DNA of 64,000 nt from a phage: sequence record PZ496580.1; one strand, written 5' to 3'. The translations under genes and the position numbers were made by a program. Shown here piece by piece: positions 8,292-14,228 of the stretch (its first letter is position 1; each line of letters begins with the position of its first letter). The notes beneath the pieces were generated by a model. The model saw nothing but the letters and a program-made list of their open reading frames with translations, did not search any database and was not told where the DNA came from.

Positions 8292-8948
8292 ATGCAAGTT
8301 TCTGAAAAAGAGAAAGACTTTGCTATCTCAAATGTCCTGCGCGCTATTTTCACAACTAAAAGCACGGAGTTGCTCGTACTTCGTGTTTTTGCTGCCGTCG
8401 TGTTGTCCATATTAGCATTTGTCGTTTATAGTAAAAACGAGTTATTTGCGCTTTATAAAGAGACTCGTTATGAGACTTATGCTCACGTTCTCCAGGTAGA
8501 GAAAGACCGCAATTTTGATAATGCAGCACAGGAGCAGTTACAGATAGTTCATGTGTCGGCTGATGCCGATTTTTCTGCTGTTTTTAGTTTTCGTCCGAAA
8601 AACCTAAACTATTTTGTTGATTTGGTGGCATATGAAGGAAAGCTACCGCATACGATCGATGAAAAGAATTTAGGCGGATTCCCTATCAATAAAACGAGTG
8701 AAGAATATCGTAGGCATCTTTTAGGTAAATCCTATTTTACTGATAAAGATTTCCAGTATATTCCATCGAGGGAGAAAAAATTAGAGAATATCGATATAGG
8801 ATTCATGTATTCTTGTCCTATATTCAATCTCGATAATGTCTATTCTGGTAGTATCGCCATTGCATGGAAGAATAAACCGGATATTGACATTGAGAATTTA
8901 GATACTCTTTGCAATCAATCTGCCAGAATCCTCGGAAGGATTAGATAA
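8292..8948 (+). CDS. t: Holin t (218 aa)
   Basis: Same length as T4 holin t; EQLQIVHVSADADFSAVFSFRPKNLNYFVDLVAYEGKLP and C-terminal ARILGR match remembered T4 T. Confidence 0.9.
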   Translation: MQVSEKEKDFAISNVLRAIFTTKSTELLVLRVFAAVVLSILAFVVYSKNELFALYKETRYETYAHVLQVEKDRNFDNAAQEQLQIVHVSADADFSAVFSFRPKNLNYFVDLVAYEGKLPHTIDEKNLGGFPINKTSEEYRRHLLGKSYFTDKDFQYIPSREKKLENIDIGFMYSCPIFNLDNVYSGSIAIAWKNKPDIDIENLDTLCNQSARILGRIR

Positions 8949-8952
8949 CTTA

Positions 8953-8988
8953 AAGGGGAAGCCTTTCGGCCTCCCCTTCTTTTTTATT
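8953..8988. terminator. Convergent terminator separating plus-strand late module from minus-strand early array
   Basis: AAAGGGGAAGCC-TTTC-GGCCTCCCCTT hairpin followed by CTTTTTTATT. Confidence 0.6.
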
Positions 8989-9232
8989 GGTGCATAGAAG
9001 CCCCTGAATCACATTTTGACGCTGTATGATGAAAACAGGTAGCGTACCAGTCATCGGCTTGTTTGTCTTCGTCAGAAAACGCGTAATTTCGTTGTATACC
9101 GTTTTCTACTTTGACCAGTGCAATAGCTGTTTCTGGAAGATCAATCAATCGAACAAAATCACCATCTTCCCACTCTACACGAGCAATATCATAGCCCATC
9201 TCAAAATAAACAATCGCTTGTTCTAATTTCAT
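8984..9232 (-). CDS. Hypothetical protein (82 aa)
   Basis: Last ORF of the minus-strand array; start overlaps the stop of the upstream ORF. Confidence 0.5.
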   Translation of the reverse strand: MKLEQAIVYFEMGYDIARVEWEDGDFVRLIDLPETAIALVKVENGIQRNYAFSDEDKQADDWYATCFHHTASKCDSGASMHQ

Positions 9233-9930: not shown

Positions 9931-10263
9931 TTACAGATGAAAACCTGTTACGATCACCGCGTCGATCATACCGCTAGGGATAAACGGTTCACCCTCTTTT
10001 ATCTCAACTTTGAATTGATGCCATTTCGCTAATACTTCTTCCGGTACACCCAGCGATTCGGCATCTGCTTTAGTTTCATCCATAATCCAACTAGGCTGCA
10101 TGAGAGCATAGTTTACATAGTCCATTTCTGGGGTCATGTCATCAATGTTAATATATTTGCAGTTGACGCGTTTCAGAATTTCAAATTCTTTATCATCAAC
10201 CTGTACCATGTACAATTCGGTAGTTTCTGGAATCAGTTCCCATACAATCAGTACATTTTTCAT
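9931..10263 (-). CDS. Hypothetical protein (110 aa)
   Basis: ORF in tightly packed minus-strand array. Confidence 0.5.
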   Translation of the reverse strand: MKNVLIVWELIPETTELYMVQVDDKEFEILKRVNCKYINIDDMTPEMDYVNYALMQPSWIMDETKADAESLGVPEEVLAKWHQFKVEIKEGEPFIPSGMIDAVIVTGFHL

Positions 10264-10271
10264 AGGTCACC

Positions 10272-10640
10272 TCACTTAACAAAGATTTTCTTTAATGCTT
10301 TCAGGATCGTTGCTTCCGGCGCTTCTTCCGGTGGAGGAAGCAATTCTACCACTTCCTCTTCCAACTCGATATAGTCTACCAGATATTCTACATAGAATGC
10401 AAGTGCTTCCATGAAATTAAATGCTACATCCGATTCACCACACGCTCCTACATGCATTGTATAAACATCACTGCGATCAAGTTTGTGGATACTGCCTAGA
10501 TAGTTCCGGTTATACCAGACTTCCCACACTTTCAGCTTTCCGGTTTTGGTTGCTGTTTTATAATCGGTTTCGTAGTGGTGCAATTGACGTTGCAGATCAT
10601 TGATAATAACACATTTTTCGTAATTGTTTTGAATTTCCAT
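10272..10640 (-). CDS. Hypothetical protein (122 aa)
   Basis: ORF in minus-strand array. Confidence 0.5.
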   Translation of the reverse strand: MEIQNNYEKCVIINDLQRQLHHYETDYKTATKTGKLKVWEVWYNRNYLGSIHKLDRSDVYTMHVGACGESDVAFNFMEALAFYVEYLVDYIELEEEVVELLPPPEEAPEATILKALKKIFVK

Positions 10641-10650
10641 GATGTAATCC

Positions 10651-10842
10651 TCACTTATCGTTAAGAAGTTCTAAAACTTTCTGTCGTACTTTGTCAATAT
10701 TAGTTGATTCAAAAACTGTACGGTATCCCCAGCTTTGACCGTATGACCGCGAGCAATCCCCATATCCCCATTGTTCAACCTGATAGTATTCAAGGAATGG
10801 ATGTTGCCGAACTATTATACCATCGCGATTAAAAATTACCAT
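10651..10842 (-). CDS. Hypothetical protein (63 aa)
   Basis: ORF in minus-strand array. Confidence 0.45.
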   Translation of the reverse strand: MVIFNRDGIIVRQHPFLEYYQVEQWGYGDCSRSYGQSWGYRTVFESTNIDKVRQKVLELLNDK

Positions 10843-10864
10843 AATATAATCCTCACGTCAAAAC

Positions 10865-11164
10865 TTATTTTCGGTTGTGGTCACGATATGTTTTAAAATA
10901 TCCCTCGTACCACGGTAAAACATCTGGATTTTTACCACTATACAGACTTTTAACCATCATGTCAATAAGACCGTCCGGTGTTTGATAATTACCAGCTTTT
11001 ATAAGCTCTCTGATTAAAATCTCTCTGTATATGTCTTTAGGATCTTCGTAATCAACTTGTATTGTGGTTGTTGTCTCGCTTAATTTGGTTTCTGGGGTAT
11101 CTTGCATCGCCTTCCACCAATCTTTTGTAATCTTCATGCTGTTGAATTTCATAATTATCTGCAC
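10865..11164 (-). CDS. Hypothetical protein (95-99 aa; start ambiguous, internal ATG at 11152)
   Basis: Track start at 11164 is GTG; ATG at 11152 lies 2 nt after the upstream stop. Confidence 0.5.
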   Translation of the reverse strand: MQIIMKFNSMKITKDWWKAMQDTPETKLSETTTTIQVDYEDPKDIYREILIRELIKAGNYQTPDGLIDMMVKSLYSGKNPDVLPWYEGYFKTYRDHNRK

Positions 11165-11925
11165 CCGTACTGGTCAACATAGATTTTAGAGTATCCTTGT
11201 TCGCGGACTTCTAAGCGAATGATATCGCTATCCTGTTCACGCCACACATAATACTTTTTATTTTCTTTCCAGCCGCTAAAAACGATCATTCCGTTGTCAT
11301 CAACTACTCGTTTTGTGTTTGCCTTATGCACATCATTATTGTCGATGTATGTAAAATGGATAATCTGACCATCTTTTACTTTCAGAGTCAATTCACCTGG
11401 ATTGTACTCTTTATAAAATGGCTGTGCTTTCGGCTTAGTGTTTGCTCCGTCGATATTTTTCCATTTAAAGTGAGATTCACATTGCAAGGTAAACTCGCTG
11501 GTTTGTGGTTTCTTTTCTTTCTTCGGTTGCTCTACCACTTTTTCTTCCTGTTTCGGTTGTTGTTCTTCGTCAACCTTAACGGAAGTCTCTGAATCGCTTT
11601 CTGACGCGGTTTCTTCTTTAGGTAATACATTCATCAAGTTTTGAATTTGAGCGTTATATACAGCCTCCAGTGGCTGAATCTGCCCGATATTGATCATAGT
11701 ATCACGAACAGTTTTATTCCAGTTGCGTTGCTCTTGTTTCAGAGACGGATCAATCTTAACAGCCTTAACATACACCTCATGAAGTTTCGAATCCAGTGCG
11801 GAGATTGACTCATTAGCACAAATAAACTTCTCTGATTTGGTAGTAGCTTTAGCGCAATCAAAGGACGCAGCATTGGCACCGAAAGCAGTAGCGGAAAGAA
11901 CGATAGCAGCGATAATGTTTTTCAT
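11155..11925 (-). CDS. Secreted DUF1311/LprI-like protein (256 aa) with signal peptide
   Basis: N-terminal MKNIIAAIVLSATAFGANA signal peptide, then FDCAKATTKSEKFICANESISALDSKLHEVY...QRNWNKTVRD, the pattern of the DUF1311 lysozyme-inhibitor LprI N-domain. Confidence 0.6.
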   Translation of the reverse strand: MKNIIAAIVLSATAFGANAASFDCAKATTKSEKFICANESISALDSKLHEVYVKAVKIDPSLKQEQRNWNKTVRDTMINIGQIQPLEAVYNAQIQNLMNVLPKEETASESDSETSVKVDEEQQPKQEEKVVEQPKKEKKPQTSEFTLQCESHFKWKNIDGANTKPKAQPFYKEYNPGELTLKVKDGQIIHFTYIDNNDVHKANTKRVVDDNGMIVFSGWKENKKYYVWREQDSDIIRLEVREQGYSKIYVDQYGCR

Positions 11926-11959
11926 AATATATTCCTCAATGTTTTGTCTTGATGGGAGT

Positions 11960-11988
11960 ATCTTACTACTCCCTTAATCCGGTGTCAA
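11960..11988 (-). promoter_or_regulatory. sigma70-type early promoter cassette (TTGACA-N17-TAAGAT) with inverted repeat GGGAGTA-N6-TACTCCC over the -10
   Basis: Plus-strand tgtcaa at 11983-11988; palindrome at 11954-11973. Confidence 0.6.
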
Positions 11989-11995
11989 CTACTTT

Positions 11996-12151
11996 TTAAA
12001 TTTCTTCTACAGTAAAGTCTTCAATGTTGTTGTGCTCTGCGAACGTTGCCAGACCAGCATCCCACGCATCATCCTCAGAGAAGAATACACCGTAACGTTC
12101 ATATCCTTTAGCGCCTTCAAATTTAACCATTAATTTGTGAGTATGTTTCAT
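11996..12151 (-). CDS. Hypothetical protein (51 aa from ATG at 12151; track start 12211 is an upstream alternative)
   Basis: ATG at 12151 preceded by AGGAG. Confidence 0.5.
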   Translation of the reverse strand: MKHTHKLMVKFEGAKGYERYGVFFSEDDAWDAGLATFAEHNNIEDFTVEEI

Positions 12152-12220
12152 TTTGATTCTCCTTCGTTGTCTTGATGAGTTCATTATAGGGGATCTGCGA
12201 TCCCCTGTCAATAACTATTT

Positions 12221-12433
12221 TTAATTTTTACCCGCTCGTGCATTAATACGCATTTTCTGCATAGCCATGATCTGGCTTACTGCTTCTTCTTTACGTTCTT
12301 GCGTGATAACGTGACCAGATTCCGCAAACTCTCCCGCAACTTCTTCTACGATCTCGCGAACTTGAGAACGTCCAAAGATGCGGTTTCCTTCGTAGCTCAT
12401 AAACTCTGTTACTACTTGCTCGATAGATTTCAT
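12221..12433 (-). CDS. Hypothetical protein (70 aa)
   Basis: ORF with SD AAGGAGAAT upstream. Confidence 0.5.
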   Translation of the reverse strand: MKSIEQVVTEFMSYEGNRIFGRSQVREIVEEVAGEFAESGHVITQERKEEAVSQIMAMQKMRINARAGKN

Positions 12434-12462
12434 GTGATTCTCCTTTTGTTTGGTATGGGAGT

Positions 12463-12491
12463 ATGTTACTACTCCCTTATCTTTACGTCAA
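12463..12491 (-). promoter_or_regulatory. Early promoter cassette (TTGACG-N17-TAACAT) with GGGAGTA-N6-TACTCCC palindrome
   Basis: Same module as 11960..11988; palindrome at 12457-12476. Confidence 0.55.
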
Positions 12492-12498
12492 CTAGTTT

Positions 12499-12741
12499 TT
12501 AGAAATTTTTCGCTTCTTCTTCGGTCATCATAACCGCGCATTCGTGCATAACTTTGAAAACCGGATCAATCATGTCGAATGCTTCGCGAGACAATTTACG
12601 AGAAGCGATTTTGATTGCTTCATCGTCTTCGACTACAGGAACAAAAACAGTTTTCAGTTCATCGAGAATGGCAGCTTCTTTTTCATTCAGGAAGATACCA
12701 GCGTCATACAGTGCAACTTCGATAACATTAACTTTAACCAT
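12499..12741 (-). CDS. Hypothetical protein (80 aa)
   Basis: ORF in minus-strand array. Confidence 0.5.
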   Translation of the reverse strand: MVKVNVIEVALYDAGIFLNEKEAAILDELKTVFVPVVEDDEAIKIASRKLSREAFDMIDPVFKVMHECAVMMTEEEAKNF

Positions 12742-12774
12742 TTTAATTCCTCCAGTTCGTTTCGGTATGGGAGT

Positions 12775-12803
12775 ATAATACTACCGATGACCTTTGGCGT
12801 CAA
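12775..12803 (-). promoter_or_regulatory. Early promoter cassette (TTGACG-N17-TATTAT), degenerate palindrome
   Basis: Plus cgtcaa at 12798-12803; GGGAGTATAATACTACC at 12759-12775. Confidence 0.45.
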
Positions 12804-13005
12804 CTGCTTTTTTATTATTTTCGTGAAAATTTTTCGTCGCCTCATGTGCTTTTCGCTGGGCTTCTTGTTGTGCTTGCTGGCGTGCTGCCTCTTGCGATGC
12901 CATAACAGACGCATTTGCAGCAGTTACAGCCGCGACCATCGCTGCGGTATTGGCATTTACAGTACATGCGCTCGCCAACAAAGCAATCGCAATCATTTTC
13001 TTCAT
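12781..13005 (-). CDS. Small secreted Ala/Gln-rich protein (74 aa) with signal peptide
   Basis: MKKMIAIALLASACTVNA signal-peptide-like N-terminus. Confidence 0.5.
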   Translation of the reverse strand: MKKMIAIALLASACTVNANTAAMVAAVTAANASVMASQEAARQQAQQEAQRKAHEATKNFHENNKKAVDAKGHR

Positions 13006-13241
13006 AGTTTCCCCTTTATGTTATCTTCGACCTTCATCCATTCCGCGTATTCTTGCGCGGCTACTTTCGGATTTAGTCCGTCTTCGTACATTGCTTCAAG
13101 TAATTCTTCGTCGGTGGGCTTATACCCTAGATAAGCCTCCACCTGATTTTTCCAAATTTTATACCAGTTCATATTATCACCAGTCAAGAGCGCGTGTCTC
13201 TGCGTCTTCCCATGCTTGATCCATAACAGCCTTAAAAACAT
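13002..13241 (-). CDS. Hypothetical protein (79 aa)
   Basis: ORF; ATGA start/stop overlap with downstream ORF. Confidence 0.5.
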   Translation of the reverse strand: MFLRLLWIKHGKTQRHALLTGDNMNWYKIWKNQVEAYLGYKPTDEELLEAMYEDGLNPKVAAQEYAEWMKVEDNIKGKL

Positions 13242-13449
13242 ATTCTAAGGTATCATCTTTCGAGAATCCGAAGACCTTAGACGGAATATCTTCAATTGCT
13301 ACTCCAGCAACTTCCGCATTACGAGCCTGACAATAATGCAACTCTAAGTTATCGAGATAGCGACCGCCTAATTTCTCCATATCATCCCAACATTTCCAGT
13401 AACCTACTTTATCGGCAATTGCTAACACTTTGCTGTTTTCGTTGCTCAT
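13177..13449 (-). CDS. Hypothetical protein (90 aa from ATG at 13449; track start 13509)
   Basis: ATG at 13449 preceded by AGGAG; the track start would overlap the promoter cassette. Confidence 0.5.
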   Translation of the reverse strand: MSNENSKVLAIADKVGYWKCWDDMEKLGGRYLDNLELHYCQARNAEVAGVAIEDIPSKVFGFSKDDTLEYVFKAVMDQAWEDAETRALDW

Positions 13450-13480
13450 CTTTGATTCTCCTTTCGTTTGGTGTGGGAGT

Positions 13481-13509
13481 ATGTTACTACTCCCATTATT
13501 CAGTGTCAA
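13481..13509 (-). promoter_or_regulatory. Early promoter cassette (TTGACA-N17-TAACAT) with GGGAGTA-N6-TACTCCC palindrome
   Basis: Plus tgtcaa at 13504-13509; palindrome at 13475-13494. Confidence 0.55.
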
Positions 13510-13515
13510 TAGATT

Positions 13516-13722
13516 TTATTCGATTATTTCAAATTTTGCTACCGGATCACCGTTTCGTTTGGTTGCGGTAAGTTGTTGTTTGTCAAAGTAAAACCAAATA
13601 TAGTCACCATGAACTACATCAAATGTGTTTCCGTTATTGTTCGTGAATACATCAACATCATAATCACACCCGACACTAAAGCTATAATTGATGTGATCGG
13701 TTTCAATGCAACGTACTTTCAT
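13516..13722 (-). CDS. Hypothetical protein (68 aa from ATG at 13722; track start 13785)
   Basis: ATG at 13722 preceded by AGGAG. Confidence 0.5.
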   Translation of the reverse strand: MKVRCIETDHINYSFSVGCDYDVDVFTNNNGNTFDVVHGDYIWFYFDKQQLTATKRNGDPVAKFEIIE

Positions 13723-13753
13723 TTTTGAATCTCCTTTTTGTTTCACTGTGTGT

Positions 13754-13782
13754 ATTATGCGGTGCTGGATTATGGAAGTCAA
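13754..13782 (-). promoter_or_regulatory. sigma70-type promoter (TTGACT-N17-CATAAT)
   Basis: Immediately downstream of the terminator at 13791..13822. Confidence 0.45.
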
Positions 13783-13790
13783 CAACTTTT

Positions 13791-13822
13791 TAAAATAAAA
13801 AAGCCGACCACAAGGATCGGCT
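13791..13822 (-). terminator. Rho-independent terminator after ORF 13833..14228
   Basis: Minus strand GCCGATCC-TTGTG-GTCGGC hairpin followed by TTTTTTATTTT. Confidence 0.65.
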
Positions 13823-13832
13823 TAATAATCAG

Positions 13833-14228
13833 TTACTTACTAAATTTCTTTTTGGCTTCGTCTACTGCATGAGATGCCAGTACCGCCGCCGCATGTGCAT
13901 TTTTATCTGTGTTGCAGAGAACACCCAGATAAACATCACGCCAAAGTTTAATCATCTCGTAGATCATATCAATATCATTTTCTTGTTTGTTGGCGATGCT
14001 ATTCGTCGTTATCTGGTAAGGTAACGGCTTGATCTGTACTGGTTCCGCCATCGGGCTAATAGGTTTCGGATCGGTCATAATAGGTGCTGTTGTCGGTGAT
14101 GTTTTCCATACGTCATTATTCCACGGTTTAACGGTTGTACCGTATATTTTATAAGGATTTTTGTCTGGATCAACCATCCATGTATGATGAATACCTAAAC
14201 CATTTGAAGTAATGCGTCGCTCAGTCAT
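13833..14228 (-). CDS. Hypothetical protein (131 aa)
   Basis: ORF in minus-strand array. Confidence 0.5.
   Translation of the reverse strand: MTERRITSNGLGIHHTWMVDPDKNPYKIYGTTVKPWNNDVWKTSPTTAPIMTDPKPISPMAEPVQIKPLPYQITTNSIANKQENDIDMIYEMIKLWRDVYLGVLCNTDKNAHAAAVLASHAVDEAKKKFSK

Follow-up and report, generated by a model that had tools for sequence, protein, structure and literature searches.

LprI of M. tuberculosis (Rv1541c) is a lipoprotein in which a helical domain of the DUF1311/LprI type (PF07007) is followed by a small eight-stranded β-barrel that can be recognised from its sequence as an MliC domain. Its inhibition of lysozyme has been attributed to the MliC domain, which is regarded as sufficient (PMC7933661). 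ScwA of Salmonella, a soluble periplasmic protein with structural disulfides in which a C-terminal PF07007 is the sole domain, regulates the levels of MltD and confers no lysozyme resistance (PMC7933661). In enterohaemorrhagic Escherichia coli (EHEC), the DUF1311 protein Etsi4 rescues the toxicity of Etse4, providing periplasmic immunity to a cell-wall-targeting type VI secretion system (T6SS) effector (PMC12981562). In Pantoea, homologues of orphan LprI-domain genes adjoin lysozyme-like effectors, and immunity was inferred from this neighbourhood (PMC9796082). Phage T4 encodes Sp (spackle), a single 75-residue helical bundle that is made early, exported, soluble and periplasmic, and that inhibits the tail lysozyme gp5. 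Here we analysed an LprI-like gene located at positions 11155-11925 of a 64,000-nucleotide stretch of phage DNA (sequence record PZ496580.1, called the window below), whose product bears comparison with each of these proteins.

The window belongs to a Krischvirus, an RB49-like relative of T4: its positions 10000-14000 align at 90-99% nucleotide identity with 59 phage records, nearly all of which are Krischviruses of Escherichia or Shigella. The gene is a genuine open reading frame (ORF) of 256 codons with an ATG start, lies on the minus strand, as do all features of the window described below unless stated otherwise, and contains the sequence quoted in the original prediction (FDCAKATTKSEKFICANESISALDSKL...QRNW). 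It is the orthologue of RB49p262 and occupies the same place, with gene 52 (topoisomerase) on one side and the holin gene t, at a distance of about 2 kb, on the other. The DUF1311 label itself is not new and already stands in the databases: RB49ORF260c was given a weak DUF1311 match in 2006 (PMC1524935), the RB49 protein is entered in UniProt as 'Lysozyme inhibitor LprI-like N-terminal domain-containing protein' and NCBI names the copies found in E. coli 'lysozyme inhibitor LprI family protein'. What is added here is the modular cassette structure of the gene, the sharing of the gene by virulent and temperate phages and the parallel with the two-domain plan of LprI.

A constant head and an exchangeable barrel

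As the original prediction had proposed, a signal peptide opens the protein; it is of the Sec type and takes up residues 1-19 (MKNIIAAIVLSATAFGANA; 11869-11925). The signal was called by rule, that is, from a hydrophobic core followed by an A-x-A site: a lysine occupies position 2, the core has a Kyte-Doolittle value of 2.9 over 9 residues, and cleavage is predicted between ANA and the A of the following ASF. An AlphaFold2 (AF2) model built on 21 homologues gives a pLDDT below 50 for residues 1-20. Neither a lipobox nor any other hydrophobic or membrane segment was found after the signal in the rule-based reading of the sequence, and the protein is probably exported as a soluble periplasmic protein. 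Residues 20-106 (11608-11868) make up the N-domain or head, which Pfam and AF2 call as a four-helix domain of the DUF1311/LprI type with Cys24 and Cys36 (helices 30-37, 39-58, 62-80 and 83-98; pLDDT 63-81 over residues 30-98); the helical head of a prophage homologue that was also modelled is likewise compact. No solved DUF1311 structure was retrieved by sequence search, and the predicted fold of the head was thus not superposed on a family member. The linker that follows (residues 107-145; 11491-11607) is rich in E, K, S, Q, V and P, acidic (E9 K7 S5 Q5), predicted to be disordered (pLDDT below 50 for residues 104-137) and variable in length and sequence among homologues. The C-domain of about 110 aa (residues 146-256; 11158-11490) is predicted by AF2 to be an all-β barrel of eight to nine strands lying between Cys149 and Cys255, with a pLDDT of about 90 over residues 142-255. 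The original prediction overlooked this second domain, and the structural resemblance to lysozyme-inhibitor barrels lies here. In all 21 homologues, two cysteines of the head (Cys24 and Cys36) and two near the ends of the barrel (Cys149 and Cys255) are invariant, and they may form the disulfides Cys24-Cys36 and Cys149-Cys255.

Among the 21 homologues, pairwise identity averages 97.5% for the N-domain and 67% for the linker, and for the barrel it averages 33% and falls as low as 7%. The barrels form at least four classes: a window class (with a subclass at 54-60% identity), an RB49 class, a Phi1 class (with a related prophage form) and a JSE/prophage class. Because hhalign gave a probability of only 2% between the window-class and the JSE/prophage-class barrels, homology between these two classes is not demonstrable from sequence, and no similarity of the JSE/prophage class to any of the others was detected. 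In AF2 models, the tails of both the window class and the JSE/prophage class are all-β with about eight strands, the prophage form being modelled at lower confidence.

At the DNA level, the window is about 95% identical to RB49, JSE, Phi1 and PHB13 through the promoter, the head and most of the linker. This identity ends at 11508-11521 and is back at 11152-11156, which is the stop codon, thereby delimiting an exchangeable cassette that holds the C-domain coding region (11157-11508) and is flanked by conserved DNA on both sides; the upstream recombination breakpoint falls within the linker. Comparison of the window with phage UPWr_E1 revealed no difference in the 333 nt of codons 146-256 and 16 differences in the adjoining 318 nt coding for the signal peptide and N-domain, the mark of a recent transfer of the cassette.

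Both domains are under purifying selection. In the head, 7-16 synonymous differences were counted against 0-5.5 non-synonymous ones (dS 0.11-0.28, dN 0-0.02, dN/dS 0-0.12). On these figures, the head is constrained rather than merely young. Within a class, the dN/dS of the barrel is 0.13-0.26, which rules out positive selection there, and between classes dS is saturated. As read from these comparisons, the barrel pattern is one of old discrete alleles shuffled by recombination, not of hypermutation. By analogy, discrete shuffled classes that are each under purifying selection are typical of specificity or immunity determinants.

Discrete, specificity-like classes would also suit a protein that masks the envelope. 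In such a role, the barrel would bind a component of the host envelope from the periplasm and block adsorption or DNA entry by competitors, or the loss of progeny on cell debris, each class matching a different host component. The closest precedent is Llp of phage T5, which reportedly binds FhuA in this way, and an exported early protein encoded near tail-fibre and holin genes, and carried at prophage edges (see below), would fit as well. However, barrel class did not co-vary with the tip of gp37. The gp37 tips of FL37 and W115 are 89-93% identical to that of the window, yet both phages carry an RB49-class barrel, and UPWr_E1, with a barrel identical to that of the window, has a gp37 tip that falls outside the close matches. 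The protein also lacks a lipid anchor, and we consider masking of the envelope to be decidedly unlikely.

Carriage by virulent and temperate phages

All deposited Krischviruses (about 58 genomes) carry the LprI-like gene. About 44 have an RB49-class barrel and about 11 a Phi1-class barrel, JSE has a class of its own, and the window class is found, besides the window, only in UPWr_E1. The gene is also present in 26 of 5,426 complete E. coli genomes, with a head 92-95% identical in DNA to that of the window. These copies lie at the edge of a prophage of about 35 kb inserted in hicB, beside the truncated hicB (L001, 11925-12777, and L002, 12001-12373, both in E. coli chromosomes), and their hosts are gut and clinical strains. 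In IMG/VR, nine of 11 loci are contigs of 23-36 kb with the gene at one end, and the classes represented are the window-related subclass, the Phi1-related form and the JSE/prophage class. While the RB49 class was seen in Krischviruses only, the other classes are common to virulent and temperate phages. In strain EC416, an alignment with 80% identity to the window continues beyond the stop codon for about 75 nt and takes in the beginning of the Krischvirus downstream gene (window 11080-11155), a hint that a prophage acquired the LprI-like gene from a Krischvirus-like phage. T4-like phages of Klebsiella and Aeromonas code for proteins with the same signal, a head of 36-43% identity and a charged linker (Klebsiella phage Marfa, L014, 144-425 and 2501-3259, its Sp included; Aeromonas phage AS-sw, L015, 1974-2693). 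No similarity of their C-terminal parts to the Krischvirus barrels was detected, and that of the Marfa protein has two cysteines.

By analogy, a place at the edge of a prophage is typical of cargo that benefits the lysogen, if one assumes that the gene is expressed from the lysogen. The protein could be a lysogenic-conversion or host-fitness factor directed against animal c-type lysozyme or another host-derived stress, its carriage by Krischviruses being incidental. An architecture that parallels M. tuberculosis LprI, the prophage edges of gut and clinical E. coli and the name given by NCBI to these copies are in keeping with this possibility. Against it, the MliC motifs and a match to the MliC profile are absent (see below), and E. 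coli already has MliC. Moreover, the retention of the gene in every Krischvirus genome and the strong purifying selection on its N-domain argue for a function in lytic infection. We thus find a host-fitness factor of this kind quite improbable.

Family labels and barrel fold

Members of the PF07007 family have a four-cysteine pattern. The LprI-like protein matches the profile with 25.3 bits for a gathering cut-off of 22 (E 2e-5), in agreement with the N-domain originally claimed, over profile positions 1-71 of 106 only, and its homologues score 22.4-26.4 bits. The first cysteine pair (Cys24/Cys36) is invariant and the later pair is missing (RDTMINIG); a distant homologue, P0021, has extra cysteines where the later pair would fall (RNKCPDAEC). 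Conserved cysteines have been described for the family (PMC7933661). PHROG 14799 spans the whole protein and has no annotated function, and searches of NCBIfam and PADLOC gave nothing significant. From the family label, the original prediction had gone on to function, stating that LprI-family proteins are known lysozyme inhibitors. As worded, this premise fails, because inhibition by the M. tuberculosis protein is attributed to MliC and because ScwA gives no resistance; it is a transfer of name. In the databases, the name 'lysozyme inhibitor LprI family' has the wrong domain as its basis, and it is not to be taken as a function.

The phage protein nonetheless repeats the DUF1311-plus-barrel plan of M. 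tuberculosis LprI, because an eight-stranded barrel with a cysteine near each end follows the head. Both proteins have an export signal, a DUF1311-type helical domain and then a small eight-stranded β-barrel, which in the phage protein is predicted. They differ in that LprI is a lipoprotein whereas the phage protein has no lipobox, in that the barrel of LprI is recognisable as MliC from its sequence whereas that of the phage is not, and in that the phage protein has a disordered linker of 35-45 residues between its domains and a swappable barrel cassette. Structure matches of the C-domain to solved structures included PhiA and PliC, and generic eight-stranded barrels (a designed barrel, outer-membrane proteins, TbpB and NHBA) scored similarly. 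Foldseek comparison of the protein with the PDB returned weak lipocalin and FABP matches only (E about 1e-2), and in BFVD the matches consisted solely of the RB49 orthologue and of small, uncharacterised barrels and lipoproteins from phages.

Barrels of the MliC/PliC fold that are devoid of the inhibitory motif, to which the phage barrel can be compared, have been described in Brucella and Neisseria. Brucella PhiA (7dpy) has a barrel-stabilising disulfide (Cys76-Cys154) and lacks the SGxxY motif, and in Neisseria ACP, which inhibits lysozyme, a disulfide ties the first strand to the last and MliC motifs are missing. MliC, PhiA and ACP all have cysteines in the first and last strands, those of E. 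coli MliC lying in ..YQC.. and ..NNC.., respectively; in the LprI-like protein, Cys149 lies at the start of the barrel and Cys255 at the C-terminus. Judging from the models, a fold-level kinship of the barrel to MliC/PliC is possible, while membership in that family is not shown by its sequence. When the whole protein and profiles of its N-domain and C-domain were searched against PDB sequences, no meaningful match came up, and the window-class barrel profile, compared with 1.84 billion representative proteins, found only its own cluster and spurious summed matches to PKD-repeat proteins. At the level of sequence, the barrel is an orphan.

Predicted early expression, possible targets and neighbouring genes

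A σ70-type early promoter (TTGACA, 17-nt spacer, TAAGAT; 11960-11988; 10 of 12 consensus matches) precedes the LprI-like gene, and a ribosome-binding site read from the sequence (GAGGAA, 11932-11937) lies 6 nt 5′ of the ATG. A similar promoter layout occurs ahead of the neighbouring small ORFs at 12211, 12491 and 12803. Because the total of promoter-like sites across the region is not above that counted in shuffled sequence, the promoter is supported by its position and recurring layout, not by statistics. Promoter type and position suggest that the gene is expressed early in infection, and the location among early genes named in the original prediction was borne out by the place of the gene between gene 52 and holin t.

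We tentatively favour the view that the LprI-like protein acts in the periplasm as a neutraliser of proteins that come in and attack the envelope, peptidoglycan hydrolases being the foremost class of targets. Made early and exported to the periplasm, it would present two binding modules, a constant DUF1311 helical module and a swappable, disulfide-clamped β-barrel, held together by a flexible acidic tether. These modules would bind and neutralise hostile proteins entering the periplasm from outside, such as the tail-spike lysozymes of superinfecting phages or the muramidase or amidase effectors and bacteriocins of competing bacteria, and the cell wall would thereby be protected, be it that of an infected cell or of a lysogen. 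A conserved function would fall to the constant module, through binding of a partner that is itself conserved or of an enzyme that does not vary, such as the gp5 lysozyme of Krischviruses, and the barrel cassette would add a second specificity that varies across the population.

Support for a neutraliser comes by analogy from the DUF1311 proteins documented or predicted to provide periplasmic immunity to wall-directed T6SS effectors. Etsi4 and the Pantoea orphan immunity genes are of this type, and orphans without an effector also occur. Also in its favour are the signal peptide with neither lipobox nor membrane anchor, the predicted barrel with a cysteine near each end, the recombining barrel classes under purifying selection, the place at prophage edges, and, in RB49, the lack of Sp and Imm homologues together with an endolysin that a lysozyme inhibitor would spare. 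The T6SS immunity genes lie in T6SS islands beside their effectors, whereas the phage gene lies in an early region or at a prophage edge and has an extra, variable barrel; neither a cognate effector nor a T6SS island was found beside it, its neighbours being phage early genes, or truncated hicB and prophage genes. The phage protein is also predicted to resemble ScwA in being a soluble periplasmic DUF1311 protein with structural disulfides, and differs from it in the position of the domain.

Several observations weigh against a neutraliser of peptidoglycan hydrolases. PF09864 (MliC/PliC) gave no match at E≤1 with the whole protein or at E≤10 with ten C-domains, and hhalign comparison with an E. 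coli-type MliC alignment, itself of low diversity (74-88% identity), gave probabilities of 2.2% for the window-class profile and 0.8% for the JSE/prophage-class profile. Neither of the inhibitory motifs SxSGAxY and YxxxTKG is present in the window sequence or in the other classes, and the sole SG of the window barrel (VFSGWKE) is not conserved between classes. PhiA failed to inhibit SagA in vitro, and the lack of lysozyme protection by ScwA, a DUF1311-only protein, points the same way. Barrel class did not co-vary with the gp5 lysozyme, the lysozyme domain of gp5 being 99-100% identical in all Krischviruses regardless of barrel class; since gp5 is invariant, the phage's own tail lysozyme does not account for the variability of the barrel. 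Klebsiella phage Marfa codes for both Sp and a protein of the LprI-like plan, six genes apart, and other exported RB49 proteins (p192, vs, vs.1, the p182 lipoprotein and rI) are eligible for the role of Sp.

The original prediction corresponds to a narrow case of the neutraliser, in which the protein is an Sp analogue that inhibits the gp5 lysozyme of superinfecting Krischviruses or T-even phages and thereby confers exclusion and resistance to lysis from without. In tblastn searches against the whole RB49 genome and the window, the best match to T4 Sp (E 0.069) fell inside gene 41, and T4 Imm gave no match. Because RB49 gp5 retains its Phage_lysozyme domain and neither Sp nor Imm was found, an Sp-like role is filled by no recognisable homologue in RB49, and to that extent the prediction held. 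The endolysin of RB49 is a Peptidase_M15_4 and not a lysozyme of the T4 e type, so that lysis by the phage itself would be left undisturbed by a lysozyme inhibitor in the periplasm. The early promoter is also compatible with an Sp analogue, and the invariant helical N-domain with its predicted disulfide parallels Sp, a small helical bundle with one disulfide, in general form, its invariance paralleling that of the gp5 lysozyme. However, no sequence similarity to Sp is detectable, Marfa has both proteins, and the other exported proteins of RB49 are equally eligible. With gp5 as the only target the variable barrel would be unexplained, and prophage carriage suggests a benefit beyond exclusion of T-even phages. 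We regard a plain Sp analogue as unlikely. Should the phage's own type of gp5 be a target, it would more likely be bound by the invariant head, and the barrel would then have to provide a second, variable specificity. We found no paper linking RB49 and spackle, and none describing an LprI-like exclusion protein of phages.

A bolder form of the neutraliser, possible but doubtful, is a modular immunity factor in which each barrel class neutralises a different weapon, be it a tail lysozyme or ejection protein of a rival phage or a wall hydrolase delivered as a T6SS effector or bacteriocin. Swapping of cassettes between lytic and lysogenic phages would then maintain a shared, frequency-dependent arsenal, and the protein would account for the missing superinfection exclusion of Krischviruses. 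These phages are widely isolated and are therapeutic candidates, and as they have no recognisable Sp or Imm, the gene is a candidate for the handling of superinfection and lysis from without. At least four natural barrel classes on one constant head constitute a ready-made specificity series, and the presence of the same cassette classes at prophage edges in E. coli bears on the benefit of prophages to their host and on the exchange of genes between virulent and temperate phages.

The downstream gene is a 99-aa ORF (10865-11164), and its GTG start and the end of the LprI-like ORF overlap. It varies more than the DNA around it, with about 70% nucleotide identity in Phi1 compared to 86-94% in other Krischviruses, and had no family match in PADLOC. 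Barrel class showed no strict link with this gene, as Phi1 and PHB13 share a barrel class and differ downstream.

The succession of constant N-part, linker and variable C-terminus is as in polymorphic toxins, in which the constant part delivers a variable C-terminal effector, and the proximity of holin t could suggest periplasmic control of lysis at the level of holin or antiholin. However, the next gene is not swapped together with the cassette: homology is back at the stop codon, and the gene remains well conserved across barrel classes except in Phi1, whose divergence is not found in PHB13. Nor do the known toxin folds include a small disulfide-clamped barrel, and no link of the LprI-like gene to the holin or to RI was found. 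Both a toxin-like protein and a factor controlling lysis are, in our opinion, highly improbable.

The second small secreted protein noted in the original prediction also corresponds to an ORF (12781-13005). Its 74-aa product has an N-terminal hydrophobic signal, ending either in a lipobox-like site (LLASA before C) or in a cleavage site (VNA before N), followed by an A/Q/E-rich tail. Family searches, including Pfam, PHROG, NCBIfam and PADLOC, gave no match. The ORF is accessory: it was found in 12 of about 58 Krischvirus genomes at 97-100% identity, RB49, JSE, Phi1 and UPWr_E1 being among those without it.

Between 11950 and 13520, the intergenic stretches that precede each of the small early ORFs contain a TTGACR-N17-TAnnAT promoter and an inverted repeat of the GGGAGTA...TACTCCC type, and match one another by blastn. 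Recombination at these repeated promoter cassettes could underlie the gain and loss of small genes. Further away, an 82-aa ORF (8984-9232) adjoins holin t (8292-8948, plus strand). Its orthologue in a metagenomic locus (L016, 5756-6004) has a weak precomputed Pfam match to PF11195 (Tad2-like), suggesting that this ORF may be a relative, in Krischviruses, of the Thoeris anti-defence protein Tad2.

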